IMG/VR virus record: IMGVR_UViG_3300017613_002335 | From: a virus | Direction: 5' to 3' (one strand) | Length of the DNA stretch: 56,209 bases | In this document: one piece after another, positions 1 to 56,209 of the stretch | How positions within the stretch are numbered: the stretch's first letter is position 1 | Layout: each line of letters opens with the position of its first letter | Made by a program: the position numbers and the translations under genes | The notes under the pieces: generated by a model | The model's input: the letters and a program-made list of their open reading frames with translations, nothing else | What the model was told of the DNA's origin: nothing | The model's database searches: none

Positions 1-121
1 AGGAACCTTTGAAAATAAAGATTTGTTAAAAGGGGTTGGTGCAAGGTGGAAACAAAAACAATGGAGGTTTGATCATGACCCAACAAAAAATATCGCCAAG
101 GCACTCAGAGATAAACATGGA
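1..121. repeat. Terminal overlap copy 1 (identical to 56089-56209)
   Basis: Base-for-base identity over 121 nt. It lies inside an open reading frame. Confidence 0.97.
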
Positions 122-3100
122 ATATTACAACCAGATAGTGAAAAAACACCCGGAGATCGAGGAACAAGTGATGAAAATCTGGATGGACGATCACCCGGGG
201 TGGCCGGATCTGTTAGAAAAAAGGGAACCCACAAAATGGGAACTCTTGATGATCCTGAAAGGTATGTCCAAACAGACACAATAGCTGCGATCAACAAAGG
301 GAAAGAATTCGGAATTCCCCAAAAAGTTTTAAACGAACAAGTCGATGATATTGCAAGGATAGTAAAAGCGCATAATGAAAAGACCGGCATTTTTCTCCTT
401 GCGAATGAGGCTGGTACAGGAAAGTCATTTGTACTTGGTGGTGCTATGCAGGAATTGCAGCGCAATGGTGCAAAAAAGATACTCTATGTGACGATGAATA
501 ATGGATTGGTCAACCAACTCAAGAAAGATCTTTCCGCATTTGATATAAAAAATGTTGAATTCATCACATACGCGAAACTACGCAAAACGACTCCAGCATC
601 GTATGACGCATTGATTTTTGATGAGAGTCAAAATATTAAAAATGTGAAATCCGCTGTCGGGAAAAGAGCAAACCTTTTCATTGAACAGTCAAAATTTTCA
701 ATATTTGCTTCAGCCACACCATTTGAAAACCCAGTTGAGGCCGCATACCTTGAACCGACAAATATTTTTTTTAGTGGTCATTGGGACTGGGCAATTGACC
801 ATGGTGCATACACCAGCCAGTTCAGAAACAACAAGTTTTTGGTTTGGCCTGGTCAGGGTTCTGAACAAAACGCTATTGATGCAAGGAACTGGCTTATAGA
901 TAAAGGTGTGATGACTCAGCGAGACATGCAACTTGATCCTAAAACATCAGAAGTCAAAGTAAGTAAAGTCTCGGTTGATGCTGATTATGTGAGTATGTAT
1001 ACCAGCATAACAAATGCTTTTGATTATGCGATGGATAATCTCCCTGGTAAACAAAAGGGGCAATTGGCAGCTTATGGTGTGAACCTTAGAAAACGGATAC
1101 TTGAGGCAAGTAAACTTGACCAGGCTATCGCCGCTGCTAAATCTGCAATAAAGGAAGGCCGAAACCCAATTATTTTTGTTGAAACTAAAGCTGAACGGCG
1201 GATTGATACGGACAGTATTATTACAGCATATGATATGTGGGAACAAACACCACGGGATTTGCGAGATAAAAAACCTCCATATAGCAAAGTAACATATAAC
1301 GCAGCGAAGGCAATCCAAGATGCAGGGTTTGATGTCCTTACCTTAGAACCAACACAATCAAAAATTGTTGAAGCATTCGGTGAAGAAAATGTAGCTATAT
1401 ACACTGGCGCGGTTAGTGATATCAAGGCTCATAAGAACTTATCACAATGGCGTAAGGGGAACAAAAAGGTTTTGGTTGCAACTATGGCAAAAGGCGGCAC
1501 TGGGCTCAGTCTTCATGACACAGTCGGTGATCATCCTACAACCCAAATAAATTTAAATCTCCCATGGAAAGCAAGCGGTGTTGCCCAGGTTTCCGGTAGA
1601 TCAGCCCGATATGGGGTTGTTGGGAAACCCAAAACCGTTTGGATTTATGCCAAGAATATAGAGTTTGACAACGATTTGGCATCGCGTGTAACCCAACGCA
1701 TGAAAGACATGGGCGCGACGGTTAAGGGAGATATACCAGGGTTAGCGAAGGAGTTTGAGGATGCGTCTGGGGATGGTCGGGGTGAGAAGACAACAATCCG
1801 GGAAGCAATAGGGAAGACAAATACCAAGGTAACATCAGAAGACGGTAGGGCATATATTCTTGAAGATCTTGTTACAGGTATTTACAAAGCAGGGATGTCC
1901 CTTAAAGATTTTTCAGGAAAAGTTGCTGGTAAACTTGGTAGCGCATACAAAAAGGTAAAAGATGCTGTTGTCAAGATGTATCACGCGATCAACGCCCATC
2001 TTGATACATTTACATCTGGTTCTTCTGTTGGGGCTTTGACTTTATATCGAAAAGATGGGACAAGACCTCAATACCAAACCTTGAACCAATCCCCTGAAAA
2101 CCATTCCCCGTGGTATTCCAAAATGCGGGAAACCCTTAGTAAAAAACTCAATAATGCCCCTGCAAAAATGATGAAATCTCAAGTTAATTCATGGGCTAAA
2201 AAGGGCATGTTCAAGAAAGAAGAACTTGAATGGTCTGGATTGAATGAATGGCTTGATTCTAAAAAAGGTAAGGTCACAAAACAAGAAGCTCTTGATTATC
2301 TTGATCAGAATCAGGTTCAGGTTGAGGAAGTTGTTAAGGGTGAAAATTTGAGTGAAAGATCTTTAGCACATGAAGAAATATCACTATACGTTAACGATGA
2401 ACTTGGAGACGGTCTTTATTTTGATGATAGAGGGCCAGAAGGGTATAGTTACATAATTGAAGAAGATAAAGATGGTAACCTTGGAGAAGTAGTCCATGAA
2501 GGTTATGCAGACGAAATTGCCGAAAGCTTAAATTTAGAAATAAGAACCCCGGAAGAACAAACAAAATTCTCAGACTACCAACTCCCCGGAGGCAAAAAAT
2601 ACAAAGAGATTTTACTGACGTTGCCATCTAAATCCGGATTAAAAAAACTCACAGGCTTTAATAGCATATCAGAAGCAAGTAAAAGAGCAGAAAAATTAAA
2701 ACAAGATTACAAATCCCCCCATTGGGACGAACCAAATGTATTAGCCCATGTCCGAATGTCAGAGCGTGAGATTGATGGTAAAAAAGTCCTGCATGTTGAG
2801 GAAATCCAAAGTGACTGGCACCAAAGAGGTAGGGAGAAAGGGTATGCGTCAGGACCATTAGCTGAACTACCAAAAGATACCCGTGTCTATTCAAAAAATA
2901 TGGCGATTAATGCCAAGACAATCCGTAATAACTTCAAAAAACACTATGACACTGTAATTGATGGGTTGAGTAAAGTGTATGACGGATTGTCAGAATCCGA
3001 GCAAAAAAAGATAGAAAAACTTGATGATGCTGTTCAAGATTATTTTGATAAAGATCCAAATACTGAAAATGTAGGGGACCCAATACTATTTGTTGAATGG

Positions 3101-6100
3101 GCAAACAAAGTCAAACCAGGGACATTCTCAGACGAGTTTATAAATCCAGTTAGAAAGACTAAAAAATGGTTTGTTAAAGGCCCAGGCAAATATTCACGGG
3201 GTAGTAGAAGTTTGATAGATTCTGCCGGTGATGTCATTATAGGTAGGGGTAGGAGTGAGAATGAAGCAGTAAAAGATGCTCTTAAAAATGTAAATGACTA
3301 TAACATTTCACAATCTACACCCAACGCCCCATTCAAAAAAACATGGCCCATGCTCGCTTTTAAACGGATGGTCAGATACGCAGCGGAGAACGGGTTTGAT
3401 ACTATTGCTTGGACTCAAGGTACAGAACAGGCTGATCGGTATGATTTGAGTAAGCACATAGAGGAAATTTTATATTTCACCCCGGGACCCGGTAAAGTTA
3501 GAATGGATATTCAAACTATTGACGGGGAACGCATAAACTCTTTCGATGAACTAATGACTTTTGAAGAAGCTGAAGATGTTGTTGGTAAAGAAATTGTTCA
3601 AAAAATGCAGAATAGTGAAGGTGACAAAAAACGCCATGGGGAGAGATCTTTGTCAGGTATCGATCTCAAAGTAGGCGGCGAAGGAATGCTTGCCTTCTAT
3701 GACAAGATCCTACCCGCCGAAGTAAATAAATTCTTCAATAAAAAAGCATGGGGTAAGTCTCGGGTCGGGGAGATTGATGTTTTTACAAATGAGGCATATG
3801 AAGACTCAGATTATGCAGAATTAGATGATTTGACAAGGAAAATTGCTAAAGAAAAAGGGGAGCTTGAAACTCTACATGCTTTAGAAATAACCAAAGAAAT
3901 GAAATCCAAATCCCTGAAAGAAGGCATGCCCTTATTCCAAGGCAAGTCAATTGACAAAACTGGGGAAAATGCTAAACTATCAGGCAAAGAAAAACTAAAA
4001 GCCCTATTTCAATCAAAGAAGGATAAGAAAGATGCCCTGCGTAAAAGTAAACGGGATAAGGTATTATCTAAAACCGGAAGCATTACAAGACAAAGACTTT
4101 ATGCAGCGATTGAAAACATCGGGGATGCCTCAAAAGCAAAAATCACAATCCCTGCCAACCGAAAACAAAAAACCCTTAACAAACTTGGAAAAGCACTCGG
4201 ATTAAAAACAGTATTCTTTAAAACCTCTGATCCAGATACCAATATAACAGGATTTACCTACCCCGGCACAGATCAATTATTTATCAATCTTTCATCCGGT
4301 GTTCCAGAAATTGGTATACTCGGTCATGAAGTAACCCACCAGATAAAGAACAATCACCCTGACCTTTACGATTATCTTGTTAGCGAATTTGAAAATAATA
4401 AAAAAGATTATTTCCTTTACGCTGCTACAGAACAAACCAATCGTGAACTTGCGAACCTGCCCAAATTATCAGAAGCGGATTTGCTTGAGGAATTTATAGG
4501 CGATTTTGCAGGGGATAGCTTTCAACGTCCTGAATTCTGGTCAAAGTTAAATCAAAAATCTCCTTCAATGTCTCAGAAGTTATTCAGCGCAATTAAAAAA
4601 GTTGTGGCTAAAATCAAATCATTTATAACCAGAGCGGAACAGTATGTGGTTGATATTGATAAGGCTCAAGGTGCTATTGCTCATGCTATGAGTGAGGCTA
4701 TTAATCGTGGAAATGGCTTGAAAACTAAGCCGAATAGTGGTAGCAAGTTTTCAGTGACAGATAAAAAGGGGAAGGGCAACATATCCACTGAATCAAACCC
4801 CGTTACGCCCGCTGGTGGAGTGAAATTCAAGAAAATAAAAGACATCCCTATAGAGGACGGCCAAATTCACATTCGTTTTTCAGATAGGATAAGCGATGAT
4901 TTAGAAAGGGGTTGGTCTGGATTTATGGGGGAGAGAGCAGACAATTCCCCTGAGGGTGCAGTTCAACAAGATTTCGGGCAAAGTTTAAAATTTGAAGAAA
5001 TTCACGAAGATTTATATCATTTTTTTGGGGAAGGTGGTGAAAAGCTAGGAGAAGTCAGAAAAGACCCACATACCAAAGAATGGGTTCACGTTGACCATGA
5101 CGGTGTTGCAGGTTTTGATCTAGATGCTGGAAAATATGGTTCAACATTAAGCGATATTATAACTAATTTAGAAAAAGATTCATATGCTTCTTGGTCTTTT
5201 GGTTCATCAAGCGACAGTGGAAAAATATGGAAAGAAGATAACCCAATAACGCTTTATTCTGGTAGTATTGGCGACAATAAAGATATAAACATCATCCTCA
5301 CTGGTGCATCTAAAAAAACAAGAGATAAATTTCTATCCCCTAAACCATCCAGCACACCGGGCGCAGGTGTGCAAAGTAGTACCTCCTCCTTCCAAACAGT
5401 CAAGAACACAGCAACCAAGGCATTTAAAAAATGGAGTAAAGGGCTTAAAGATAATGGCAAATATAAAACAGGAGAACCGGTTTTATTAAAAGCATCTCAT
5501 GGAAGTTTTTCAGCAGGTGGTTTAAACAAGTTTAGTGCAGAAATGACCGGAAGTGGGATATACGGGAGTGCTGAAAATAATAGAATCGGGCATTATTTCA
5601 CAACAGATCGGTATATTGCATCTGAATATGCGACAGGTTACGATGTAGAAAATCTGAATCAAGAAGATGAATATGACGAATTTCTTCATGATAGTATTTT
5701 AGATGGAGAGATTGTTGAAGGTGCTGGGATTATAGATGCGCACATCAGGCTCGACAACCCTTATGTTATTTCTGGTAAAAAGTTTTCTAAATTTGTTGAG
5801 GGAAAAACAAAAGATGTAGATAGCCTTATCTCTGTATTGGATAATGGTGGTCATGATGGTGTCATAGTGGTCTGGTCTGACAAGTCTCCATCAGCTAAGA
5901 TATTATACAAAGAAGCTTACGATAAAAATATAAAAGTGATGCAAAAGGCGTATGAAAAAGCATCTATTAAGCAACAGAAACATTTAGAAATGGTAGATCA
6001 TATTTTCCATCAATGGATGGAAAAAGAAAGAGCAGATGAACTCCCAGATGTCGTGAGGGAAAATTTTAAGATAATAAATAAAAATGACATCTTCAAAGGG

Positions 6101-9100
6101 TTAAGTGTAGACGAGTCTGCTAAAGAATATTTATCAGGAGAAGACAAATGGATAATTGTACGTCCAGATGCAGCGAATAACGCCCAAATAAAATCCATCC
6201 ACAACAAAGGCACATGGGATAAAAACAACCCTGATATCAGGTATCAAACCTCCGAAGATCTTGGACACGATGGTTTTTCAATAGAGGACAATTCAAGCTT
6301 TGTTGAAGATTTCAAGCATAATATTGTTGATGAGCTTAGTCCGGTATCAAAGCTTTACAAAGCAATTAAAAAGGATATCCCAGAAGCCGCAGACTTTAGA
6401 TTAAAGGAACAATTAAGAGTCAGTAAAGCCAAGGGTGATATCGATAAAGCAGAAGAAAAATATTTCAAGCCAATCAAGCAACTTATTGGCCTTGGGAAAC
6501 TAACCGTGGAGTTGGTTGACGAGTTCCTTTATGCCCGTCATGCACCAGAGGCCAATGCCAGGTTAAGGTTGACCAATGCGCGGCATTACCTGAGAAAGCT
6601 GGCAGATGCACAAAGAGGGGACAGCCTCAAAAATAAGATTGCAGAAATGGACGCTGATTTTGAGTTGATGCAATTCCCAACCAATGAGATTCAGGAGAGT
6701 TATTTAGACCTCCTAGAATCTGAATTGGGTACAATTGAAGAAACCTTTGCAGCTGCCAACCAAAAATTAATGAGGGCTGAATCAAAGCTTGATTCTCCAC
6801 TATCTGAAAGCCAGATTGAAAAAGCTGAAAAATCGATAGCATATCATAAAAAGATAGTTGATAAGATCGATAGAGAATTCGATGTCAGAGACAAATGGGA
6901 AACTTTTAGCGCGAAACCTTCAGGCATGACTGACGGCCACATTGACCCAAGAGACAATGAAGCCAAAGAGATTTCTGACAAGTGGAAAGACAACAAAACC
7001 ATGGCTAAAATTGCAAAGCTGTACGACGCAATGAACGCTGAAGGTCTTGAAATATCCCATGATGCAGGCCGACTGTCAGATGAAGAATATAATGCTATCA
7101 AGGGTACTTTCGATTATTATGCTCCACTGTTCAGGGAAGGGTATGAAAAGAAACGCGCTTTTAAAGGTATCGGGGGTGGTGTCACAAATTTAGGTTCTGA
7201 TGTAAATCCCAGGGGCGGGTCCACAAAAAGAGCGGTCCATCTTCTGGCGAATGGTTTTGTGAATCATGAGAAAAAAATCATAAATGCCAAAAAAGCAGAG
7301 GTCGCATCGGCTTTTATCAAGTTCATAAAAATGAACCCGAACAAAGACTTCCTGAGTTTTGAAGAACCCAAAACAGTCGCTACATATGACGGGTCAGGTA
7401 ATATCGAAAGAAGGCCAGCGTTTTTTATTGGTAAGGACGAACCAAAGATAAAAGTTAAAACTGATGGTAAGGTTTATATAGTCTCAGCCAGTCCAAACAA
7501 TATACATGCCATGCGGATACTTGATATTATCCAGGGGAATGATCACAATTCAGGTCCGATTGTAAATGCTTTGGGTAAATTAAACCGAAGACTTGCCGCA
7601 GTAAACACCACATGGAACCCTGAATTTATTTTCTCTAACCTTGCGCGTGACCTTCAAACCGCTGCTTTTAATTTGACCGATACAGAAGTATCGAACATGA
7701 GGAAAACGATATTTAAGAATGTCCCAAAAGCTATGAAGGGTCTTTACAGTTCCATGCAGGGTGACGGCTCCCATGAGTGGGTGAGTATAGTCAAGCGATA
7801 CGAATCATCCGGGGCAAAGATAGGCTGGATCGATTACGGTAAGGATATTGAAACAAAGGCCGCGAAACTTGAAAGCCAGATAGATTTATTCCGGGAAGGA
7901 CATAAGACCAAAAAAGCGGCCGCTAAATTGGTTGAGCTTGTCGAGGACTATAACTCGATTGTTGAAAATGCGGTCAGGCTGTCCACATTTAAGGCCGGTA
8001 TTGATTCTGGTATGTCAGAGGCAAAGGCCGCAATCATGGCAAAGGGTTTGACTGTAAACTTTAACCAGAAAGGTGCTTACGGCCCTGTCATAAATAGTCT
8101 TTACCTTTTTGCAAATGCAGGCATCCAGGGATCAACCCGGATTTTTAAAACGATTAAAAATAACCCTAAGAAAATGGCTAAAATTTTGGGTGGCACCATG
8201 GGGCTGGCAACCATATTGGCCATTGCGAATAGGTCACTGGGCGGCGATGATGAAGACGATATACCATACTATGATCAGGTTGACGATTACCTGAAAGCAA
8301 GAAACATGATCTTTATGATACCCGGGACTAAGGGTAAGTATGCTAAAATACCATTGCCCTGGGGATATAATGTATTCTGGGCGTTAGGTACTGAGATTGG
8401 TGATCTTGCGATAAAAGATGATTATAGCCCACTGGATGGTGCAAGCCGAATGTTAGCAACTGCCCTGGATGCATTTAACCCGTTGCAATCTGCTACTGTC
8501 CTGCAAACTTTATCGCCAACCGTCGGAGATCCGTTTGTCCAGGTTGGTGAAAACAAAACATTTTTTGGTTCTCCATTAATGCCAGAGGGCAACCCGTTTT
8601 CACGAACACCAGAACCAGACTCTGAAAAATACTGGGGATCTGTCAGACCAACATCTAAGATGCTGGCCAAAGCTGCGAATACAATCAGCGGTGGAAATAA
8701 AGTAAAACCCGGCATGGTTGATGTGTCTCCCGAAACGCTTGATTTAGTCTGGGACACTTTTACAGGCGGGGCCGGACGATTCCTATCGGATACAGTTTCC
8801 CTGCCAATCAGGGCGTTGTCCGGGGATCTAAAGACTTCAAAAATACCTGGGCTTAGAAGAGTTTTGGGCTCTCAATCAGAATATAAAGTCACAACTGATT
8901 ATAGATCTAACATAACCTATATATATAGATTGCATGAACAGGCAAAAGAGTATCCGGCAAAGAAAAAGAAATTACGCAAGAATAAAGTGTACACGCTTTA
9001 TACATCTGCGAAAAAATATGAATCGAGAATAAAAAAACTGAACACCCTTTTAAAACGGGCAAAAACCGAAAAAGGAAAAGAGAAAATTAAAAAACGGATA

Positions 9101-9154
9101 GAAAAGTTAAAACGGGCATTCAATAAAAAGGTTATCTTACGGAGGGCTTCTTGA
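1..9154 (+). CDS. Giant virion polyvalent protein, C-terminal part (continuation of 52601..56209 across the circular junction)
   Basis: Same frame as 52601 and open from base 2. ORF-track entry 23..9154 is only the portion after an internal TTG. Motifs: NEAGTGKS (404-427), FDESQNIKN (617-643), ATMAKGGTGLSLHD (1478-1519), EEIQSDWHQRGREKGY (2798-2845), HEVTH (4325-4339), H..Y..E-like block (5470-5890), hydrophobic helices (8090-8420), Lys/Arg-rich tail (8940-9151). Confidence 0.85.
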   Translation, partial: GTFENKDLLKGVGARWKQKQWRFDHDPTKNIAKALRDKHGILQPDSEKTPGDRGTSDENLDGRSPGVAGSVRKKGTHKMGTLDDPERYVQTDTIAAINKGKEFGIPQKVLNEQVDDIARIVKAHNEKTGIFLLANEAGTGKSFVLGGAMQELQRNGAKKILYVTMNNGLVNQLKKDLSAFDIKNVEFITYAKLRKTTPASYDALIFDESQNIKNVKSAVGKRANLFIEQSKFSIFASATPFENPVEAAYLEPTNIFFSGHWDWAIDHGAYTSQFRNNKFLVWPGQGSEQNAIDARNWLIDKGVMTQRDMQLDPKTSEVKVSKVSVDADYVSMYTSITNAFDYAMDNLPGKQKGQLAAYGVNLRKRILEASKLDQAIAAAKSAIKEGRNPIIFVETKAERRIDTDSIITAYDMWEQTPRDLRDKKPPYSKVTYNAAKAIQDAGFDVLTLEPTQSKIVEAFGEENVAIYTGAVSDIKAHKNLSQWRKGNKKVLVATMAKGGTGLSLHDTVGDHPTTQINLNLPWKASGVAQVSGRSARYGVVGKPKTVWIYAKNIEFDNDLASRVTQRMKDMGATVKGDIPGLAKEFEDASGDGRGEKTTIREAIGKTNTKVTSEDGRAYILEDLVTGIYKAGMSLKDFSGKVAGKLGSAYKKVKDAVVKMYHAINAHLDTFTSGSSVGALTLYRKDGTRPQYQTLNQSPENHSPWYSKMRETLSKKLNNAPAKMMKSQVNSWAKKGMFKKEELEWSGLNEWLDSKKGKVTKQEALDYLDQNQVQVEEVVKGENLSERSLAHEEISLYVNDELGDGLYFDDRGPEGYSYIIEEDKDGNLGEVVHEGYADEIAESLNLEIRTPEEQTKFSDYQLPGGKKYKEILLTLPSKSGLKKLTGFNSISEASKRAEKLKQDYKSPHWDEPNVLAHVRMSEREIDGKKVLHVEEIQSDWHQRGREKGYASGPLAELPKDTRVYSKNMAINAKTIRNNFKKHYDTVIDGLSKVYDGLSESEQKKIEKLDDAVQDYFDKDPNTENVGDPILFVEWANKVKPGTFSDEFINPVRKTKKWFVKGPGKYSRGSRSLIDSAGDVIIGRGRSENEAVKDALKNVNDYNISQSTPNAPFKKTWPMLAFKRMVRYAAENGFDTIAWTQGTEQADRYDLSKHIEEILYFTPGPGKVRMDIQTIDGERINSFDELMTFEEAEDVVGKEIVQKMQNSEGDKKRHGERSLSGIDLKVGGEGMLAFYDKILPAEVNKFFNKKAWGKSRVGEIDVFTNEAYEDSDYAELDDLTRKIAKEKGELETLHALEITKEMKSKSLKEGMPLFQGKSIDKTGENAKLSGKEKLKALFQSKKDKKDALRKSKRDKVLSKTGSITRQRLYAAIENIGDASKAKITIPANRKQKTLNKLGKALGLKTVFFKTSDPDTNITGFTYPGTDQLFINLSSGVPEIGILGHEVTHQIKNNHPDLYDYLVSEFENNKKDYFLYAATEQTNRELANLPKLSEADLLEEFIGDFAGDSFQRPEFWSKLNQKSPSMSQKLFSAIKKVVAKIKSFITRAEQYVVDIDKAQGAIAHAMSEAINRGNGLKTKPNSGSKFSVTDKKGKGNISTESNPVTPAGGVKFKKIKDIPIEDGQIHIRFSDRISDDLERGWSGFMGERADNSPEGAVQQDFGQSLKFEEIHEDLYHFFGEGGEKLGEVRKDPHTKEWVHVDHDGVAGFDLDAGKYGSTLSDIITNLEKDSYASWSFGSSSDSGKIWKEDNPITLYSGSIGDNKDINIILTGASKKTRDKFLSPKPSSTPGAGVQSSTSSFQTVKNTATKAFKKWSKGLKDNGKYKTGEPVLLKASHGSFSAGGLNKFSAEMTGSGIYGSAENNRIGHYFTTDRYIASEYATGYDVENLNQEDEYDEFLHDSILDGEIVEGAGIIDAHIRLDNPYVISGKKFSKFVEGKTKDVDSLISVLDNGGHDGVIVVWSDKSPSAKILYKEAYDKNIKVMQKAYEKASIKQQKHLEMVDHIFHQWMEKERADELPDVVRENFKIINKNDIFKGLSVDESAKEYLSGEDKWIIVRPDAANNAQIKSIHNKGTWDKNNPDIRYQTSEDLGHDGFSIEDNSSFVEDFKHNIVDELSPVSKLYKAIKKDIPEAADFRLKEQLRVSKAKGDIDKAEEKYFKPIKQLIGLGKLTVELVDEFLYARHAPEANARLRLTNARHYLRKLADAQRGDSLKNKIAEMDADFELMQFPTNEIQESYLDLLESELGTIEETFAAANQKLMRAESKLDSPLSESQIEKAEKSIAYHKKIVDKIDREFDVRDKWETFSAKPSGMTDGHIDPRDNEAKEISDKWKDNKTMAKIAKLYDAMNAEGLEISHDAGRLSDEEYNAIKGTFDYYAPLFREGYEKKRAFKGIGGGVTNLGSDVNPRGGSTKRAVHLLANGFVNHEKKIINAKKAEVASAFIKFIKMNPNKDFLSFEEPKTVATYDGSGNIERRPAFFIGKDEPKIKVKTDGKVYIVSASPNNIHAMRILDIIQGNDHNSGPIVNALGKLNRRLAAVNTTWNPEFIFSNLARDLQTAAFNLTDTEVSNMRKTIFKNVPKAMKGLYSSMQGDGSHEWVSIVKRYESSGAKIGWIDYGKDIETKAAKLESQIDLFREGHKTKKAAAKLVELVEDYNSIVENAVRLSTFKAGIDSGMSEAKAAIMAKGLTVNFNQKGAYGPVINSLYLFANAGIQGSTRIFKTIKNNPKKMAKILGGTMGLATILAIANRSLGGDDEDDIPYYDQVDDYLKARNMIFMIPGTKGKYAKIPLPWGYNVFWALGTEIGDLAIKDDYSPLDGASRMLATALDAFNPLQSATVLQTLSPTVGDPFVQVGENKTFFGSPLMPEGNPFSRTPEPDSEKYWGSVRPTSKMLAKAANTISGGNKVKPGMVDVSPETLDLVWDTFTGGAGRFLSDTVSLPIRALSGDLKTSKIPGLRRVLGSQSEYKVTTDYRSNITYIYRLHEQAKEYPAKKKKLRKNKVYTLYTSAKKYESRIKKLNTLLKRAKTEKGKEKIKKRIEKLKRAFNKKVILRRAS

Positions 9155-19564: not shown

Positions 19565-20191
<627 letters not shown>

Positions 20192-40145: not shown

Positions 40146-40162
40146 AAATGAGGTAATAAAAG

Positions 40163-42335: not shown

Positions 42336-42383
42336 ACATATTTTTTTTAATTTTTTTTAATTCAAAAGATACGAGGTAAACAA

Positions 42384-42845: not shown

Positions 42846-42908
42846 GGGGATTTTAATCAACCTAAGTAATCAGGGGGGTGAAACTCCCCCCTCCGGAGAT
42901 TTAAACAC

Positions 42909-43364: not shown

Positions 43365-43367
43365 CCA

Positions 43368-44033: not shown

Positions 44034-44034
44034 A

Positions 44035-46601: not shown

Positions 46602-46608
46602 GTGATAC

Positions 46609-46956: not shown

Positions 46957-47228
46957 TGGGAGCAACAATTTACCCTGAACCCGGGTCATTAAAACTAAAA
47001 CAGAACATAACAGATACCGGGACGCTTTCGGCTGGATCACTTGTCAAGGCTGTAACTATCCCAACCACAGTTGTAAAGGCCAAAACAACCATGAATGTAT
47101 GGGTATCTGGGCTAGCAGTCGTAACTTATCACCCGGTTTTTACAGATGGTGACACTATAACTGTAACCGTTAAGGGAGGAAGTGATTTCGCTGTTACTAT
47201 TTCAATTGAACTTTTGGAGGTCTATTAA
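46956..47228 (+). CDS. Hypothetical tail-module protein (90 aa)
   Basis: Coupled ORF. Confidence 0.5.
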   Translation: MGATIYPEPGSLKLKQNITDTGTLSAGSLVKAVTIPTTVVKAKTTMNVWVSGLAVVTYHPVFTDGDTITVTVKGGSDFAVTISIELLEVY

Positions 47229-47410
47229 TGGCTGATAAATATTACATCAAAGTAAACGGCAGTAATGAAATAACAGGTACAGCATCATGTCACGGATCTA
47301 TTGGGATTGTTAAGCCTGAATTTGTTGAAATCACTGAAAGCCTTTTTGCACAGGCTGAACCGGGCAAGATTTATAACCCTGAAACCGGGGAAATTACTGA
47401 GGCTGAATAA
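47228..47410 (+). CDS. Hypothetical tail-module protein (60 aa)
   Basis: Coupled ORF. Confidence 0.45.
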   Translation: MADKYYIKVNGSNEITGTASCHGSIGIVKPEFVEITESLFAQAEPGKIYNPETGEITEAE

Positions 47411-48339: not shown

Positions 48340-48348
48340 GGGGATGCG

Positions 48349-49587
48349 ATGCAATTCAATGAAGATGTATATTACAAAAATCAGGTCGCGCGACTCAATG
48401 CAGGGACGGAAGCCCACCACGGAGTCAAGGCAAAGCAATGGACTGTTGATAATCTTAAAAGGGTATTTGGTGAGGTAGGTCATACCGCACAATCACATTA
48501 TCAACAGCACGGTATGAAAGAAGGCGTTGCCCCTTATGCGGATTGGAATAAAAATGTTTATGATGCAAATAAGGTTGTCCAGGCCAATGATACTGGTGTT
48601 GTAAATACAAACCTTGGCGTTACAAAAGGGGGCTGGAATACAACTAATCTGAACGAGGCCATGAAGTCTGGTGGAATGAATTCATTACAACATTATGAAA
48701 AGTTTGGCCGGGCTGAGGGCGTTTCTCCCTATGCAAAAACCGGCACGACTCCGATTGTTCAATCGATGTTTTCAGCAAATAGTGGGAACGGCACCCCGAC
48801 CTTGAAAAATGTGACCCCGTACGTACCGCCAGAAAAAGACTTGGTGCAAGGTCGGCTAAATGGACTACTTGCCAAGGGAGGCACTTATATGACCAGTGCC
48901 AGGAAAGCTGGCGAAAGGGTCGCTCATTCAAGGGGGCTGTTGAACTCCAGTCTTGCGGGTCAGCATTCCGAGGAAGCAGCAATAAAAGCCGCTCTTCCTA
49001 TTGCACAGCAGGATTCAAAATCGTTGATCGATGCAGGAACGGCACATCAAAAATATCAAACGGATGTAGGTATCATTTCTGCCCAGGAAACAGCGAGTTC
49101 AAGATTGTCAGCACAATCATATATCCAAGACAGGGGATTGGCTGAATTAAAGGGCTTGATAGAATCTGGGCTATCTTCACAGGATGCCGCGCAAAAACTT
49201 GGGTTATCGGCAGCCGACGCCGCTCAAAAGCTTAAATACCTGGAATTGGATGCTTCTTACAAACGATGGCTGTCTTCCCAGGACGCCACACAGAAACTTG
49301 CACTTGATAAACAGCAGCAGGAGCATGCAGATATCAGAGCGAAAGCCGAAAGGGATTTAAAAACTACTCTTTTAAATGCAGAACTTTCAACATCTGAAAA
49401 CAACACCAGGGCGGCTCAAGTGACAAGTCTTGGCAATAATTATCAGGCTAAATACTTAGAAATCCAAATGAGTACCACAACAAAGTCTGAAGACAAACCC
49501 GATCTAATTAAAAGTCTAAAAGAAAAATATCAGGCGAGTATGCAAGGTGTAGCCGGTATTTATGGGGTGACGCTCACATGGACATAA
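48349..49587 (+). CDS. Tail-module protein: two HY..G..EG repeats plus a Gln/Ala/Ser-rich coiled-coil C-terminal half
   Basis: Repeats at 48484-48537 and 48679-48732. 412 aa. Confidence 0.55.
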   Translation: MQFNEDVYYKNQVARLNAGTEAHHGVKAKQWTVDNLKRVFGEVGHTAQSHYQQHGMKEGVAPYADWNKNVYDANKVVQANDTGVVNTNLGVTKGGWNTTNLNEAMKSGGMNSLQHYEKFGRAEGVSPYAKTGTTPIVQSMFSANSGNGTPTLKNVTPYVPPEKDLVQGRLNGLLAKGGTYMTSARKAGERVAHSRGLLNSSLAGQHSEEAAIKAALPIAQQDSKSLIDAGTAHQKYQTDVGIISAQETASSRLSAQSYIQDRGLAELKGLIESGLSSQDAAQKLGLSAADAAQKLKYLELDASYKRWLSSQDATQKLALDKQQQEHADIRAKAERDLKTTLLNAELSTSENNTRAAQVTSLGNNYQAKYLEIQMSTTTKSEDKPDLIKSLKEKYQASMQGVAGIYGVTLTWT

Positions 49588-50030
49588 AGCGATGCTACGA
49601 CGCACATATTATAGATGGGATTTTAACCCATCCAGAGGTCCGGGACTGGTTGACGGATGATAATTCCCCTCAAGATTATCAAACCGTGATTCATCCTCAG
49701 ATAGTTTATTTAATAGATGAGGATCACACGGGCGTAATACGGCTTGACCCAATGAATAGTGTTACCTGTTCGGTCCATATTGCCACCAGGCCTGAAATGT
49801 GGGGAAGAGGTCATCAATTTGCAAAAGATGTCATGAAGTGGGGGTTTAAAAATACTCTCTACCAAAAGGTAGTGGGAATTATCCCGGGATATAATGACCG
49901 GGTAATAAAATTAGTAAAAGACTTGGGGTTTAAGCAAGAAGGGATGATCACAAAATCATTCCTGAAACGCTGGAAACTCCATGACCAACTTATATTTTGT
50001 TTAAATAAAGGAGATGTGCCATGCCAATGA
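49578..50030 (+). CDS. GNAT-like acetyltransferase-fold protein (tentative)
   Basis: WGRGHQFAKDVMKWGF and DLGFKQEG resemble the acetyl-CoA-binding (R/Q)xxGxG/A and C-terminal LGF blocks. 150 aa. Confidence 0.4.
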   Translation: MDIKRCYDAHIIDGILTHPEVRDWLTDDNSPQDYQTVIHPQIVYLIDEDHTGVIRLDPMNSVTCSVHIATRPEMWGRGHQFAKDVMKWGFKNTLYQKVVGIIPGYNDRVIKLVKDLGFKQEGMITKSFLKRWKLHDQLIFCLNKGDVPCQ

Positions 50031-50782
50031 TAGTAGCTCCTATCGCAAGTTTTGTGACAGGTATAGTCGGCACAGGTGTAATCGGTGCTGTTGTAACTAA
50101 GGCCGTTGTCGGGGCGGTGTATGGTGCCTTAATCGGTGCCGCTACATCTGCCATTACAGGCGGTGATATTCTACAGGGGGCGCTGAAAGGGGCGCTTTTT
50201 GGTGGGCTTGCCGGGGGGGTGATGAGTGGCTTGCAAATAGCCACAGGAATGAGCAGCGCGTCGGCACAATTGGCCGATATGGGTGTGGGGTTGGGCGCAC
50301 CAACGAGCGGACCGCCATTTGTTGAGACTGTTCAAGGTCCGTTAAATGCAGGAGCTACAGCCCCAATTGAGGCAGCAACACCAATAATACCCGCAACCGG
50401 TGGCGGTGGGGGCGGTGGGGGCGGCGGTGGCGGTGGTGGATCAACTCCAATTCCAGCGGAAGCACCACCTGTTAAAAAACCGGGTGTCTTCAGCTCAGTA
50501 TTTGGTGAAGGCGGTATGAGCGATGGAACATCCAGAATACTTGCCGGTGGTGTGACAGGCGCTGCAGGGGCGTTGCTGGAAAAAGAACCTGAAACCAACT
50601 CAGAGTATGCAAAAAAATTACAAGAACTTAACAGAACCGCTCCGTATGTCGAGGAAGGTATACCAACATATTCACAGGCAACGTCAAACATCAAAATACC
50701 TGATTTCTGGGAAAACTCATATAAATTGGTTAGCCCCAAAGCATCAAATCCCGGACTATTAGCAGCAGGAGGGACCGCATAA
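50021..50782 (+). CDS. Glycine-zipper membrane protein with a poly-Gly tract (internal virion / ejection protein by position)
   Basis: The N-terminal 75 aa are GxxxG/A-rich hydrophobic sequence. 14 consecutive Gly codons at 50399-50440. Confidence 0.6.
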   Translation: MPMIVAPIASFVTGIVGTGVIGAVVTKAVVGAVYGALIGAATSAITGGDILQGALKGALFGGLAGGVMSGLQIATGMSSASAQLADMGVGLGAPTSGPPFVETVQGPLNAGATAPIEAATPIIPATGGGGGGGGGGGGGGSTPIPAEAPPVKKPGVFSSVFGEGGMSDGTSRILAGGVTGAAGALLEKEPETNSEYAKKLQELNRTAPYVEEGIPTYSQATSNIKIPDFWENSYKLVSPKASNPGLLAAGGTA

Positions 50783-51378
50783 TGAACCCGAATCAGCAAG
50801 CCCCGCCAATGGAGCAGATGCCAATGGATCAGCCAGGGCAAGAGACTCAAGTCCCGCCTGAAATGCAGGAACAGTTTGATTTATTTGTAATCAATGCGAT
50901 CAATGTTGTTCATGATAAAACTGTATCAGAGGGGATTTTGACAAGGATACTTCACAATGAGAATCGCCTTGAAGCAATTGCAGAGGCAACCGTTGATATC
51001 ACGATGCGCCTTGCAGACTCAGCAGAGGGTGAAGGCCTCCAAATATCAAATGAAGTCCTTGTCCATGGTGGGAATGCTGTTCTGGGTGAGATAATTACCA
51101 TGGCAGAAGCAGCCGGGATGCAGAAGCTAACTGATGAACAGAAGAATGAAGCTTTTCAGAGAGCAACAGCAATATTTATAAATTCATCTGTTGAATCTGG
51201 GAATATGTCAAAAGATCAACTGGTCCAGATGTCTGAACAGGCCCAACAAACCCCAGAGGGTCAGCAGATTGTCCAGACTATGCAGGAACAGGGTGGACAG
51301 GGCCCAGCACCTTCACCGGAACAGCCGATCCCGCCTGAACAACCAGGGGGAATACTTGCTCAAGGGGGTGCCGCATGA
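50782..51378 (+). CDS. Acidic Gln/Pro-rich internal virion protein (hypothetical)
   Basis: Coupled 198-aa ORF. Confidence 0.55.
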   Translation: MNPNQQAPPMEQMPMDQPGQETQVPPEMQEQFDLFVINAINVVHDKTVSEGILTRILHNENRLEAIAEATVDITMRLADSAEGEGLQISNEVLVHGGNAVLGEIITMAEAAGMQKLTDEQKNEAFQRATAIFINSSVESGNMSKDQLVQMSEQAQQTPEGQQIVQTMQEQGGQGPAPSPEQPIPPEQPGGILAQGGAA

Positions 51379-52601
51379 GTTTAGGCAAAGCGCTTTTAGG
51401 TTTTGTTAAGGGGGCCGGTCAAGGCTGGCAAGCCAATATCGAGGACCGTATTACAGACAAGCGGGATAAACAAAAAGCTGATGCCCTGGAAAAAAGGCAG
51501 ATCCGGCTTGAGGAATTGCGTCATACGAATAATATGGCATTGCAAGATGACAGCCAAAAATTTAAAAAATCTGAAAATGATCGTCTCGAAAAAGTAGAAA
51601 CTGATAAATACAACCGTAGAAAAAAGGTGGCTGATGAAGAAAAAGCCGCCGATATCGTCAAGGAAGAAAAAACTTATCAGCGCAGGAAGGGTGAGGATGA
51701 AATCACTTATCAACGTAGGATAGCAGAAGAATACAAAAATGATGAGATTACATATAAACGTCGAATAGGTGAGGATGAGATTACTTATCAACGTAGGATA
51801 GCCGCCGCCAAAAAAGAAAAGGCCGCAGAAATAGACAGGGAAGAAAAACTCTACCAGCGCAGAAAGGGTGACGAACAAACCACTCATGATCGTCGGGTGG
51901 CAAAAGAAGAAAAAACTTATCAGCGAAGAAAGGGTGAGAATAGTGTTGATACCCGGACAAAAGAATGGACTATTATTTCTCGTAAAGCATTATATATTCT
52001 GTCTAATTATGAAGGGTACACAGACAAGGAAACGGGTGAACTTATCCCCGCAATGATTGCGTTAAAACAACAAGCCGATGCTGGTAACAAAGACGCCATA
52101 TCAGATCTTGCGGCAATTAATGACTTTAATATAGAGGCAAGAAAATATTCACCTAAAGGGTTGGTAGCACCACCACCTAAAGGGGGAGATAAGAGTGGTC
52201 TTGAAGATTATTTCAAGGATACGAGCAAAATCAAAGAACCAATATTAAATCCAAAAAATAAGAAAGTTAAAGTAGAAGAACCCAAAAAAGATGAATTGTA
52301 CTTTCTGCCCAAAGCAGTCAGGGAAAAGTTAGATAAAGTTGAATATGGTTCTAAATATTCTAACAAGGATAAGGCACCGAGTCTGTTATCTACCATCAAG
52401 TCCAATGTTCAAGAAAAACTTTATAGTTCACAACCAGACGGAATGGTTAAAACAGGTGAAGACAAAATCACGGCTGTATTACGTCAAATGGGGTCATCCC
52501 TTGAGTTGAGAAAACGTAAAAACATAGCGGAAATTCTGCGTAAAGAATACTCGGAGATGACTGATGCTGAGATTATTAACATGCTTGAGAGAAGAAAATA
52601 A
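51375..52601 (+). CDS. Lys/Glu-rich protein with tandem (E)xTYQRR(K/I)(G/A)E repeats (internal virion protein by position)
   Basis: About 7 copies of TYQRR-type units at about 51655-51950. Coupled on both sides. Confidence 0.6.
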   Translation: MSLGKALLGFVKGAGQGWQANIEDRITDKRDKQKADALEKRQIRLEELRHTNNMALQDDSQKFKKSENDRLEKVETDKYNRRKKVADEEKAADIVKEEKTYQRRKGEDEITYQRRIAEEYKNDEITYKRRIGEDEITYQRRIAAAKKEKAAEIDREEKLYQRRKGDEQTTHDRRVAKEEKTYQRRKGENSVDTRTKEWTIISRKALYILSNYEGYTDKETGELIPAMIALKQQADAGNKDAISDLAAINDFNIEARKYSPKGLVAPPPKGGDKSGLEDYFKDTSKIKEPILNPKNKKVKVEEPKKDELYFLPKAVREKLDKVEYGSKYSNKDKAPSLLSTIKSNVQEKLYSSQPDGMVKTGEDKITAVLRQMGSSLELRKRKNIAEILRKEYSEMTDAEIINMLERRK

Positions 52602-55600
52602 TGTTTGAATTTGATTACTTAGGTGCCTTGGAAGTCGGGAGTCAGGACGAGATTGCAAGGTTCTTGTCTGGCAAGCTTGGTTTTGATTATGATACGGCCA
52701 CAGCCGATGGTGCTACATCAGCCGAAATCATTGACTATTTCTTTGATTCAAGGCGGGTCAAGATGCCTGATCGGGGGCCAGGTCCGGAACCAGAGAAAAA
52801 ATACAATTTCTTGGGTGGTGTTAAGGATGTCGGCAAGCTCTTGTATGATGTCCCTATTAATACAAAGGCGTCAATCGCTGCATTATTAGAAGATAAAAAC
52901 CCGGAACAGGAATACGACTGGAAAGATAAGGCCATTGAAGCCCAGGAAGAAAGGAATCTTGAGCGGTCTTCTGAGCCCGGTGGTGATGAGTATGTTGTTC
53001 CAGGCATAAAACGTCAGGCAATCAGGGATGCCGGGGCAAGTACCGGGTTTTCTCTTACTGCTATGGGAGCAGGACTCCCTGGTATCTTAGCTAGTTCCTA
53101 TGCGACTCCGATTGCCGGTGTACCACTTGCCTTGGCAGGATCGGGTAAAGCCGCATACAATATGGACAGGACCATGTTTACACGGCAACTGATAGGGGCC
53201 TATCGGCAGAATGTAAACCCTGATGCAACACCCGAAGAAATTGATGCCTTTGTTGAACAATCTCAACCATTAATTAACAAACATGGTTTGTGGGAAGCCA
53301 TACCGGAATCAATCGGTAATGTTGCACAAATGACCGGGATCGGGGCCATCTTCAAGGCCGCACTGGGGAAAACCATTGGTACAAAGATTTTTGGTGCAAT
53401 AGCGGGAATGTACGGTACAGAGCTTGGAACCGAAACCATAACCCAGACCGGGCAGCACAATACTGAAATTGAAGCCGGGTTGTCAGATGGTGATAAGCGG
53501 TCCTTTACTTCTCCGGGTGATATGCTTGAATCTTTTAAAGAGGTTGCACCCCAAACTGTTGTCTTAACTTCCTTGGGTGCTGGCGGTGGTGCTGTCGCCG
53601 GTACTGCAACCGGGATTTTAAAAGCCAAGACCGCGGATGATGCCATAGACGAGGCCAACAAGCAAATAGATGGCATCCTGGGCAAGGTATCCACTCCAGG
53701 CTACACGATGCCAGGGGAATTACCATTAGATCTTGATGTGGGTGATACTCCATCTGATCCATTCCAGAATGCTGCAGAGTTGACCGAAGATTTACCGCCA
53801 ATGACAGAATCTGAATACGTTGGTGGCTTAATATCTGATATGAAAAAAGAACAGGGGATTTTAGGACCACCTATTGAAGTGCCTGAAACAACCACAACAG
53901 AAGATGAATGGAATGCACATTATGGCCAGCCGACAAAAATTGAACTAATAGATAAGTGGCAAGCCCGTAAAGTTGATGTGCCTGAAACAAATCAAGATGA
54001 GTATAAGAAACAGCAGCAAAAAATAGACCAGGAGTCAGCTCTTTTTTCACAAAAATTAGATACCATGCAAAACGAAGTAAATACCACTGAAACTAAAGGT
54101 GTTACTCAAGAACATGGTGAACAGTATGAAACAATTCCGTATGGTGCGAATTCACCAAAATGGATGCAGGATCTGCCTACTTATTTAGATAAAAACGGTA
54201 AAAAAAGAGTCTATTCAAGAGTACAACTAAATGCTGTATTTAATAACATTAAAAGCGGGAAAAAATTAAATCCTAACCAGGAAGACTTATACAGGCATAT
54301 CGAAAAAGCAGCGAATGAAAATGCAGGCGAAACAGGAGAATTTGTAGCGCAAGAAGAAGCTGACGACCTTGAGAAAAAAGGATTTGATTTATTAGGATCA
54401 CAAAAGATCCCAGCCGGCGATCTGGATATAGGCGATAAAATTATTGCTACTGTCGATGGTGTTAAAGACGAATTTACGGTCCAAGAAGCTGATACACCAT
54501 TTGGTGATGTTGTACTAAAAGATGGTGTGACTAAAACTGTTGATGTTTTTGAACAGATTGACGTTGAGGCTATTAAAAAAGGTCCAGAGCCTGGGATTTT
54601 GAGCCAGACCGTTGAAGGGGCAAAACAACCCGATACAGAGACATTACCCGATAGTGCTGTTGATGGTACTCAGGAAAGCTTAAATATTGAAGACAATCCA
54701 ACCCAAGAAGACATAGAAGACATACAAGATGCTCAGAAAGCCCAAGAGGAATTTGAGGCAAGCGGAGAAGAAACAGTTTCCCTTGAAGATGTTAAAGCAG
54801 AACTTGAAGAAATACCTCAAGAGCAAGTGGTGGAGAAGGGTGAGGTAGAGATAGACGGAAAACAATATCGCAGGGTCAGTGGTGAGAATAGTTATAACGG
54901 TGTTAAGGTCGGCAATTGGGAATTCAAGTATAAAGATCAATGGCACCCTGTTAAAAACATCCAGATAAGACAAAACGCTGATAAAGTGTTGTTAGAAAAT
55001 CAAGATTCTGTTATTCCAGAAACAGTGACAGATAAAAAGGGGAAGGGCGACATATCCACTGAACAAACCACCGGTGAACCTAAAATTTACCACGACCCAC
55101 AATCAGGAAAACTTGTCCATGTTCAAAAAGGATGGCAGAAAGACGGTGGATATACCTTCTTTAAGACAGATGACTTAAAGAAACGTGGAAGGAATATCAG
55201 GGGGAAAACAGACCAAAGATATTGGTATGATACCAAAGAAGAGGCGGAAACCGCTCTTGCTGATTATGCTCAAAAGAATGGATTCACAGAAGCTACGGAA
55301 GAACAAAAATCTGAATCCACTCCTAAAAAGGAATACAACTACCCGAACCCAAAAACAAAAATTCCTATCCATCTAAAATGGTTGGCAAAATCAGCATGGG
55401 AGCATGAATCAGCAGAGGGATTTGAAGAAAATTTACTGCGTCTTATGCCAGAAAGCGGTGCTGTGACCGTTGACCAGTCTATAAGGCAAATGGAAGAGGC
55501 TGGGTTTAAATCTCCTTCAGATTTTTGGGAAGAGTCAATATCCCTGAAAGGGAAAATTCAAAAGACTCTTGATAAGCGTGATAGTAAAAAAAGGACAATT

Positions 55601-56209
55601 AAAAAATCCCCAAAGAAAACAGAAAAATTCTCAAGTGATTACGGATCTAACAACAAGGTCTTCACTAAAGAGGCCGCAGATAAAGCCAGGGAAATCCTCA
55701 GACAGAAACTGTCAGGGAATCAGTTAAATTCCGGCCTTGATCCTGAGATTGTCCAGGCTGGCATTCAGATCGCTGGCTATCATATTGAATCAGGTGCCAG
55801 AAGTTTTACTGCATATTCCAAGGCAATGATAAAGGATATCGGTGATGTCGTTAAACCATATCTTAGATCATGGTATGAGGCAGCAAGATATTATCCTGGG
55901 TTTGATGCCTCTGGTATGACAGATGGCAAGGACATTAAAGAGGTTGACACGGCCTCAGACAAAACAGATGATAAGACAGATGATGGCGATGTTAAAATCC
56001 TTTCTGATTTCGGTCTGTTTGTAGAACAGGATGGACTTACATGGGGTGTTTCTCAGAAAAAAAAATGGTACGACAAAGGGTCTGGAAAAGGAACCTTTGA
56101 AAATAAAGATTTGTTAAAAGGGGTTGGTGCAAGGTGGAAACAAAAACAATGGAGGTTTGATCATGACCCAACAAAAAATATCGCCAAGGCACTCAGAGAT
56201 AAACATGGA
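52601..56209 (+). CDS. Giant virion polyvalent protein, N-terminal part (continues at base 1; whole gene 4,213 codons)
   Basis: ATG at 52601 overlaps the upstream stop (TAATG). I read every codon from 52601 to 56209 and found no stop. The ORF track lacks it only because it has no stop inside the window. Gly/Ala-rich hydrophobic segments at about 53000-53640, followed by acidic linkers. Confidence 0.85.
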   Translation, partial: MFEFDYLGALEVGSQDEIARFLSGKLGFDYDTATADGATSAEIIDYFFDSRRVKMPDRGPGPEPEKKYNFLGGVKDVGKLLYDVPINTKASIAALLEDKNPEQEYDWKDKAIEAQEERNLERSSEPGGDEYVVPGIKRQAIRDAGASTGFSLTAMGAGLPGILASSYATPIAGVPLALAGSGKAAYNMDRTMFTRQLIGAYRQNVNPDATPEEIDAFVEQSQPLINKHGLWEAIPESIGNVAQMTGIGAIFKAALGKTIGTKIFGAIAGMYGTELGTETITQTGQHNTEIEAGLSDGDKRSFTSPGDMLESFKEVAPQTVVLTSLGAGGGAVAGTATGILKAKTADDAIDEANKQIDGILGKVSTPGYTMPGELPLDLDVGDTPSDPFQNAAELTEDLPPMTESEYVGGLISDMKKEQGILGPPIEVPETTTTEDEWNAHYGQPTKIELIDKWQARKVDVPETNQDEYKKQQQKIDQESALFSQKLDTMQNEVNTTETKGVTQEHGEQYETIPYGANSPKWMQDLPTYLDKNGKKRVYSRVQLNAVFNNIKSGKKLNPNQEDLYRHIEKAANENAGETGEFVAQEEADDLEKKGFDLLGSQKIPAGDLDIGDKIIATVDGVKDEFTVQEADTPFGDVVLKDGVTKTVDVFEQIDVEAIKKGPEPGILSQTVEGAKQPDTETLPDSAVDGTQESLNIEDNPTQEDIEDIQDAQKAQEEFEASGEETVSLEDVKAELEEIPQEQVVEKGEVEIDGKQYRRVSGENSYNGVKVGNWEFKYKDQWHPVKNIQIRQNADKVLLENQDSVIPETVTDKKGKGDISTEQTTGEPKIYHDPQSGKLVHVQKGWQKDGGYTFFKTDDLKKRGRNIRGKTDQRYWYDTKEEAETALADYAQKNGFTEATEEQKSESTPKKEYNYPNPKTKIPIHLKWLAKSAWEHESAEGFEENLLRLMPESGAVTVDQSIRQMEEAGFKSPSDFWEESISLKGKIQKTLDKRDSKKRTIKKSPKKTEKFSSDYGSNNKVFTKEAADKAREILRQKLSGNQLNSGLDPEIVQAGIQIAGYHIESGARSFTAYSKAMIKDIGDVVKPYLRSWYEAARYYPGFDASGMTDGKDIKEVDTASDKTDDKTDDGDVKILSDFGLFVEQDGLTWGVSQKKKWYDKGSGKGTFENKDLLKGVGARWKQKQWRFDHDPTKNIAKALRDKHG
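56089..56209. repeat. Terminal overlap copy 2 (identical to 1-121)
   Basis: Base-for-base identity over 121 nt. The offset of 56,088 is divisible by 3, so the reading frame is preserved across the junction. Confidence 0.97.

Follow-up and report, generated by a model that had tools for sequence, protein, structure and literature searches.

The 56,209-nucleotide (nt) contig IMGVR_UViG_3300017613_002335 of the IMG/VR virus collection, the whole of which is here called the window, raises the question whether an open reading frame (ORF) that leaves the window at one end and continues at the other is one genuine gene, and what a phage would use its product of 4,213 amino acids (aa) for. Analysis of the circularised sequence revealed that the frame is uninterrupted. 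Its product, here called the giant, is best explained as an LPD38-type phage polyvalent protein of the kind encoded by Bcep22-, 933W- and Pavtok-like short-tailed phages, packaged in the virion and injected into the host, a reading to which we assign a probability of roughly 80%.

The contig ends join within a single gene of 4,213 codons

Comparison of the window ends showed that bases 1-121 are exactly the same as bases 56089-56209, and because of this direct terminal repeat of 121 bp the contig is a circular or circularly permuted assembly with a unit length of 56,088 bp. When the duplicate was counted once and 52601-56209 was joined to base 122 onward, the frame was open from ATG 52601 through the junction to TGA 9152-9154, corresponding to a gene of 12,642 nt including the stop, or 22.5% of the genome. 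The first-pass annotation, an earlier reading of the window, had proposed such a gene across the contig ends and put it at about 22% of the genome, and it had noted that the ORF list of the window holds only the part 23..9154 (3,043 aa); both statements hold, the list being truncated because the 5' part of the gene runs off the window end. The start codon and the TAA that ends the upstream ORF 51375-52601 share a base (TAATG), and the closest upstream in-frame stop is found at 52586-52588; therefore, 52601 is the earliest possible start. At a GC content of 41.6%, where about 6% of codons should be stops, the calculated chance of 4,213 stop-free codons amounts to ~1e-113.

The join of the contig ends is genuine, since P0139, an independent metagenomic protein of 590 aa from a separate Joint Genome Institute contig, is colinear with aa 985-1538 of the giant (36% identity, E 4e-97) and the alignment passes through the 121-bp overlap, including the shared peptide WRFDHDPT encoded there. 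P0142, also from another contig, has conserved domain, linker and helicase arranged as in the giant across the junction, and neither GC content nor GC skew breaks at this point. An assembly artefact (chimeric ends or a collapsed repeat), or a region that really consists of at least two genes, would fit with the gene spanning the contig ends, with a 41-nt repeat inside the gene that could mislead an assembler and with relative L004 (IMGVR_UViG_3300027852_000043), in which the homologous region is present as two ORFs, 3763-6780 (1,006 aa) and 7322-11662 (1,447 aa), about 540 nt apart. We consider such an explanation very improbable, given that the overlap is exact and keeps the frame, that the 41-nt repeat is shorter than this overlap, that proteins from other contigs keep the order across the junction, that the composition does not change at the join and that relatives possess internal uninterrupted ORFs of 3,447-3,695 aa.

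GC content amounts to 44-48% across 36000-54000, that is, the head/virion module plus 1.4 kb at the 5' end of the giant gene, and to 35-42% outside this region, most of the giant gene included. This contrast between modules suggests a mosaic origin.

Domain content places the giant among polyvalent proteins

Homologue searches of the giant were made with three sub-queries. In Pfam, the domain LPD38 (PF18857) was detected at aa 3920-4105 with an E-value of 2.5e-41 and a score of 142 bits, compared to a cut-off of 27 bits. Polyvalent proteins were defined by Iyer et al. (2017), who predicted that those of the phage type are packaged and injected, and LPD38 was reported in phage-type polyvalent proteins only (PMC5512222). 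The domain belongs to a C-terminal module (aa 3250-4213), in which it is preceded by a hydrophobic helix (aa 3888-3906) and followed by a strongly basic tail (aa 4140-4213). An AlphaFold2 (AF2) model of this module was mostly helical, with a predicted local distance difference test (pLDDT) value of 76. The C-terminal third of the giant is also matched by PHROGs 14770, 616 and 10691, families which were built from giant phage proteins.

Residues 1274-1750 form a superfamily 2 (SF2) helicase of the Strawberry-notch type, recognised by the Pfam models ResIII, AAA_34 and Helicase_C_4, and its motifs I (GTGKS), II (DESQ), III (SAT) and VI (QVSGRSAR) are intact. The helicase homologues P0137 and P0138 carry PF13872 together with PF13871, and NCBIfam added weak helicase matches only. 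Residues 2545-2745 fit a zincin-like metallopeptidase. No Pfam model matches this segment of about 200 aa, and the prediction was made because its HExxH motif and a downstream Glu agree with the description of the zincin-like metallopeptidase (PMC5512222), a common, not obligatory, hub domain of polyvalent proteins. The sole HExxH of the segment is GHEVTH at aa 2604-2609, the downstream motif is EEFIGD at aa 2659-2664, and HExxH as well as the downstream EE..D are invariant in nine homologous segments. The giant hence combines several unrelated activities in one polypeptide (helicase, zincin and LPD38), carries a signature LPD domain and is encoded among late/virion genes, in one block with terminase, portal and capsid genes and after a series of small genes, as is described for the polyvalent class.

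Near the N-terminus, aa 141-340 constitute a Gly/Ala-rich hydrophobic region with Kyte-Doolittle peaks at aa 146, 161, 315 and 321 and with the densest window of small-xxx-small zipper motifs in the giant. It is a candidate for a membrane-active segment, and a weak MtrD-like match obtained there reflects composition. Residues 1004-1115 make up a conserved domain of about 110 aa, helical as judged by eye and matched by no Pfam model, which is 54% identical to aa 1335-1441 of Bcep22 gp75 and 41% identical to a segment of Pavtok gp27. Using tblastn, it was found in 71 phage records, mostly annotated as DarB-like, and PHROG 10089 ('DarB-like antirestriction') matches aa 658-1121. Close relatives show a clear ADP-ribosyltransferase (ART) immediately upstream of the C-terminal module. 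At this position of the giant (aa 2992-3232), ART-PolyVal (PF18760) scored 16.9 bits (E 0.011), under its cut-off of 31.2 bits and with an insertion of about 100 aa; a local ART profile built from relatives, and phmmer as well, gave weak results. Candidate residues for the H-Y-D/E triad of an ART, picked by eye, are H2996, Y3028 and E/D3217-3218.

An uncharacterised module of about 620 aa and an in-frame linker repeat

Residues 1860-2480 form a two-lobed module with invariant motifs, among them YQLPGG, HW.EPN.LAH.R, EEIQSDWHQ, APF..W and GGEGM..FYD, and with invariant His, Glu, Arg, Asp and Tyr positions. It is shared by more than 940 clusters in a word-indexed search, and a profile search retrieved 15,433 representatives at 50% identity, 10,328 of them at E ≤ 1e-30. 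The module, often a neighbour of the zincin peptidase, frequently occurs in tandem, or in stand-alone proteins of 660-900 aa that start with the same zincin peptidase, and metagenomic proteins containing it reach 7,483 aa. No match was found for it in Pfam, PHROGs or NCBIfam. For its AF2 model (pLDDT 77), Foldseek returned no PDB match with E < 0.1, and matches in BFVD were only to uncharacterised proteins of uncultured phages. Top Foldseek matches of this model and of that of the C-terminal module were GNAT-like, actin-like or transporter-like and were discarded as not significant.

Two copies of a 41-nt repeat, identical at 40 of 41 nt, are in frame at both places and encode VTDKKGKG(N/D)ISTE in the linker after the peptidase and in an N-terminal linker (Table 1). 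In 100 shuffles, none was expected by chance. Identity at the DNA level points to a recent duplication or gene conversion, and if the two copies recombined, aa 809-2747 would be lost without a shift of frame. The encoded peptides could be cleavage sites of the peptidase. The idea of a shared recombination cassette was dropped, as a search of IMG/VR did not find the repeat and support is limited to this genome.

Relatives keep the C-terminal module and differ in the middle

The C-terminal ~950 aa of the giant show 36-64% identity to proteins from uncultured phages and 24% identity to Bcep22 gp75 (E 2e-43); of the whole giant, this module alone is conserved in all relatives. In IMG/VR, relatives were found on contigs of 54-62 kb as ORFs of 2,354-3,695 aa, in which the C-terminal module is kept and the middles differ; one of them, L007, also shares part of the N-terminus and the peptidase with the giant. 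Since the C-terminal module is shared and the middle is not, we picture the protein as a conserved chassis carrying variable cargo.

Among known systems, close counterparts are the giant 'DarB-like' proteins of the Lessievirus podophages Bcep22 and JC1. Like the gene in the window, those for Bcep22 gp75 (4,602 aa) and JC1 gp69 (4,515 aa) are single ORFs that account for 21.6-22.1% of temperate genomes of 61-64 kb and close the virion module, where they follow a GNAT gene and genes for small virion proteins. For JC1 gp69, which takes up 22.1% of a 61,182-bp genome, mass spectrometry (MS) detected 51 unique peptides in CsCl-purified virions (PMC9144972). Bcep22 gp75 has the ~110-aa domain and an LPD38-containing C-terminal module in common with the giant, and the two sequences align in these two segments only. 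At its start, Bcep22 gp75 has an SLT lytic transglycosylase, and it further contains an Eco57I-type adenine methylase, an SNF2-type helicase and LPD3; in contrast, the giant possesses the Strawberry-notch helicase, the zincin-like segment and the module of aa 1860-2480, and has no SLT, methylase or LPD3. Gp27 of Erwinia phage Pavtok, termed the longest known phage protein (PMC8402733), comprises 5,007 aa encoded by 24.5% of a 61.4-kb podophage genome (15,024 of 61,401 nt). It shares gene order and the ~110-aa domain with the giant, but ends in LPD37 and LPD39 instead of LPD38 and has SLT, methylase and an SNF2 helicase. The first-pass annotation had called the size of the giant exceptional; JC1 gp69, Bcep22 gp75 and Pavtok gp27 are all larger, metagenomic proteins with the middle module reach 7,483 aa, and this statement does not stand: in length and in share of the genome, the giant is typical of its class.

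In the Stx-converting Sepvirinae, the C-terminal ~740 aa of 933W p72 are homologous to the giant, LPD38 included (29% identity, E 1e-91), and both 933W p72 and phi24B gp47 are large proteins encoded next to virion genes. However, they are shorter (2,806-2,811 aa) and contain LPD5, LPD1 and a MuF-C peptidase but no helicase, and p72 takes up 13.7% of its genome (8,421 of 61,670 nt). Phi24B gp47 (2,811 aa, with LPD5, LPD1, LPD38 and the MuF-C peptidase) is abundant in virions and invisible in the cryo-electron microscopy map; the authors of that study proposed it as an ejection protein with a role as conduit. PTXU04_00025 (2,198 aa), compared here by its description only, is another LPD38-bearing phage protein, half the size of the giant and with no other domains annotated in its paper. 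Its knock-down using CRISPR interference through antisense RNA-targeting (CRISPRi-ART) cripples infection, and the protein is needed for efficient infection.

Cysteine is absent and hydrophobic segments are placed as in ejected proteins

The giant contains no cysteine in 4,213 aa, compared to a cysteine content of 1.14% in the other ORFs (P ~1e-21). Cysteine is equally absent from the products of the four non-GNAT genes upstream (48349-49587, 50021-50782, 50782-51378 and 51375-52601; 0 in 1,271 aa), from Bcep22 gp75 (0/4,602) and Pavtok gp27 (0/5,007), and from the ejected proteins gp50, gp51 and gp52 of N4 (0/3,500, 0/644 and 0/150) and gp15 and gp16 of T7 (0/747 and 0/1,318). In a limited search of the literature on ejection proteins, no mention of cysteine was found. 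An N-terminal hydrophobic region is also present in 933W, Bcep22, Pavtok, relatives L002-L007 and N4 gp50. In the giants, and in the unrelated N4 gp50 too, hydrophobic segments lie within roughly the first 600 residues, and one hydrophobic helix is located 270-350 residues before the C-terminus. The lack of cysteine in the giant, its neighbours and known ejection proteins alike, and the similar placement of the hydrophobic segments, both support the reading of the giant as an ejected protein.

A wider proposal is that the middle module represents an undescribed major family of effector enzymes and, at the same time, that total exclusion of cysteine is a general, computable signature of podophage-ejected proteins; we offer this pair of claims tentatively, at a little short of even odds.

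A proposed path from virion to host cell and competing readings

Together, these data are consistent with the following course. The giant would be made late and put in the capsid in few copies, together with the small upstream cysteine-free proteins, and on infection it would leave the particle via the tail in an at least partly unfolded state, before the DNA or along with it. The hydrophobic N-terminal region with its small-xxx-small motifs and the C-terminal module would serve as chassis for packaging, exit and membrane contact, and the variable middle would constitute the cargo, active inside the cell in the first few minutes and comprising the helicase/translocase, the large module and possibly an ART. 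The Strawberry-notch helicase/translocase would probably act on entering DNA or against restriction, and the zincin peptidase may cut the polyprotein into working pieces. An internal-virion or ejection role, which the first-pass annotation had proposed, is the best reading after this analysis as well, in view of LPD38, the synteny with Bcep22 and Pavtok, MS of homologue virions and the lack of cysteine.

Integrity of the ORF, domain content, conserved catalytic motifs, homology, synteny and the conservation pattern were observed directly in this work; for packaging, ejection, processing and the targets of the domains in this phage we draw on homologues and the literature. Several points weigh against our assignment. 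In the case of this phage, packaging and ejection are predicted from the genes, the virion MS data being those of the homologues JC1 gp69 and phi24B gp47, and the terms chassis and membrane contact derive from the conservation pattern and hydrophobicity. No function is assigned to about 40% of the giant (aa 1-140, 340-1000 and 2750-2990, and the module of aa 1860-2480). PDB sequences provided no match to the middle module or to the C-terminal module in profile searches, nor to the whole giant in phmmer and profile searches, and Foldseek returned no PDB match with E < 0.1 for the C-terminal module. The ART of aa 2992-3232 is a possible assignment that stays below threshold, and no peptidoglycan-degrading domain was detected with Pfam, whereas both Bcep22 gp75 and Pavtok gp27 begin with SLT. 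Because the region is split in L004, cargo and C-terminal module can be separate genes and a single polypeptide is not obligatory. Finally, a DarB-type N6-adenine methylase is missing: neither Pfam nor NCBIfam yielded a methyltransferase family, and the 4,213 aa do not contain a [ND]PP[YFW] motif.

This last point bears on the question whether the giant is a true DarB orthologue, that is, a capsid-packaged methylase-helicase which, as P1 DarB does, shields incoming DNA in cis from restriction by type I systems. The label of PHROG 10089 and the presence of an SF2 helicase, which belongs to the SWI2/SNF2 clade, speak for orthologues of this kind, as do the domain of aa 1004-1115, whose counterpart in Bcep22 gp75 lies upstream of a methylase-helicase pair, and the N6 DNA methylase domain carried by the helicase homologue P0138. 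P1 DarB is the prototype of a capsid-packaged polyvalent protein with an SF2 helicase, but it is defined by LPD36 (a four-helix domain with a GxGU motif, N-terminal to the methylase), an EcoKI/TaqI-like N6A-methylase with an NPP(Y/F) motif and a helicase. No sequence match of the giant to P1 was found, the giant leaves only about 160 aa between conserved domain and helicase, and its helicase is of a type that is in the minority among polyvalent proteins (PMC5512222). Although aa 1004-1115 are placed like the domain upstream of the Bcep22 methylase, no GxG[GAS] motif was seen there in a check for LPD36, and no P1 record was among the tblastn matches of this domain. As the methylase is absent, anti-restriction by methylation cannot apply, and orthology to DarB is considered unlikely.

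Far more credible, although in our judgement clearly less than evenly probable, is a mainly structural role in an ejectosome, like that of T7 gp16 or of the N- and C-terminal domains of N4 gp50. The giant would then build or extend a conduit across the envelope, and its enzyme-like domains would be secondary or inactive. The gene ends a series of genes for internal proteins, cysteine is lacking as in T7 gp15/16 and N4 gp50-52, all giants and N4 gp50 carry hydrophobic segments towards both ends, a conduit role was proposed for phi24B gp47 and the C-terminal module alone is conserved across all relatives. However, the intact and conserved helicase motifs and zincin metal ligands argue for active enzymes, and swapping of the middle among relatives is expected of cargo and not of a scaffold. 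This explanation overlaps with that of an injected polyvalent protein more than it excludes it. A virion RNA polymerase of the N4 type in disguise, a type marked by a central T7-like single-subunit polymerase domain, has a practically negligible probability. The 3,500 aa of N4 gp50, the virion-gene context, the lack of cysteine and the similar hydrophobic placement are features in common, but even with filters off phmmer found nothing against N4 gp50, the best BLAST E-value was 0.41 and no RNA polymerase family was found in Pfam, PHROGs or NCBIfam, which bears out the earlier view that the giant is of a different kind. N4 gp50 and the giant may work in a similar way, and this is an analogy, not family membership. 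The reading of the giant as a packaged and injected polyvalent protein is the one retained here.

Genomic context

The gene series that leads to the giant shows overlapping starts and stops at 49578, 50021, 50782, 51375 and 52601, as described before, and the giant stands at the end of the virion-gene block, downstream of terminase, portal and major capsid genes on the same strand. The GNAT acetyltransferase gene of this series is homologous to Bcep22 gp69 and Pavtok gp23. By position and absence of cysteine, the four non-GNAT products are candidates for companion internal or ejection proteins. The local order of GNAT, small overlapping genes, giant and, further on, endolysin and integrase agrees with an order common to Bcep22, Pavtok and the window (GNAT, virion proteins, giant, lysis genes, integrase), and a temperate lifestyle is probable. 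No GenBank phage matched the structural module in Megablast, and the best portal match, to an uncultured phage, was 33.5% identical; therefore, this phage has no close cultured relative. An 821-aa ORF (9756-12221) follows the giant in the place for which the first-pass annotation had named a tail fibre; this identity was not found, as PHROGs, Pfam and tblastn against phages provided no match.

Table 1. Coordinates of the giant gene, of its segments and of the upstream gene series in the window
Feature	Position (nt)	Strand	Basis or remarks
Giant gene, 5' part	52601..56209	+	Codons 1-1203; frame without stop; PHROG 10089 at aa 658-1121
Terminal duplicate of 56089-56209	1..121	.	Exact 121-bp repeat; encoded peptide conserved in P0139
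Giant gene, 3' part	122..9154	+	Codons 1204-4213 plus TGA 9152-9154; joined translation 4,213 aa
Hydrophobic Gly/Ala-rich region, aa 141-340	53021..53620	+	Kyte-Doolittle, zipper-motif density
Repeat copy 2, aa 809-821	55023..55063	+	Peptide VTDKKGKGDISTE, N-terminal linker
Conserved domain of ~110 aa, aa 1004-1115	55610..55945	+	Identity to Bcep22 and Pavtok, tblastn
Strawberry-notch SF2 helicase, aa 1274-1750	332..1762	+	Pfam, motifs I, II, III and VI
Two-lobed uncharacterised module, aa 1860-2480	2090..3952	+	Invariant motifs, profile search
Predicted zincin-like peptidase, aa 2545-2745	4145..4747	+	GHEVTH, EEFIGD, nine homologous segments
Repeat copy 1, aa 2748-2760	4752..4792	+	Peptide VTDKKGKGNISTE, linker after peptidase
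Possible ART-PolyVal, aa 2992-3232	5486..6208	+	PF18760, below cut-off
C-terminal module, aa 3250-4213	6260..9151	+	LPD38, PHROGs, homology
Hydrophobic helix, aa 3888-3906	8174-8230	+	
LPD38	8270-8827	+	
Basic tail	8930-9151	+	
Upstream overlapping series	48349-49587, GNAT 49578-50030, 50021-50782, 50782-51378, 51375-52601	+	Overlapping starts/stops

Some further features of the window were recorded. The ORF 51375-52601, directly before the giant, encodes a highly charged, cysteine-free product and contains degenerate 33-nt repeats (51660-51967) that give rise to peptide repeats of the type EEKTYQRRKGEDEITYQRRIA. Two integrase-like ORFs on the minus strand, 14263-14952 and 14891-15970, are adjacent and slightly overlapping; the one of 359 aa looks complete, and the one of 229 aa matches the C-terminal catalytic part only and may be a partial duplication or remnant. 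Between a helicase gene (ending at 25663) and a primase gene (starting at 26180), a 31-nt unit is repeated 3.6 times with 98% identity (25847-25957), and this array looks like iterons or a replication origin. A perfect (CTG)x20.7 microsatellite at 19925-19986 encodes a run of 20 glutamines in the 208-aa product, without assigned function, of the minus-strand ORF 19565-20191, and in ORF 31175-31489 a 27-nt unit is perfectly duplicated in tandem (31298-31351).

Implications

Linear ORF calling on a circularly permuted contig truncated the largest gene of this phage to 3,043 of 4,213 aa. As its class has already been described, the giant itself will not surprise phage specialists; the parts that deserve further attention are the unannotated module with its 15,000 members and the cysteine-free signature. 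The LPD38 giants hereby gain a divergent, uncultured member of low GC content, in which the end modules are kept and the cargo is different, and this different cargo supports the picture of a conserved delivery chassis equipped with swappable early-infection effectors.

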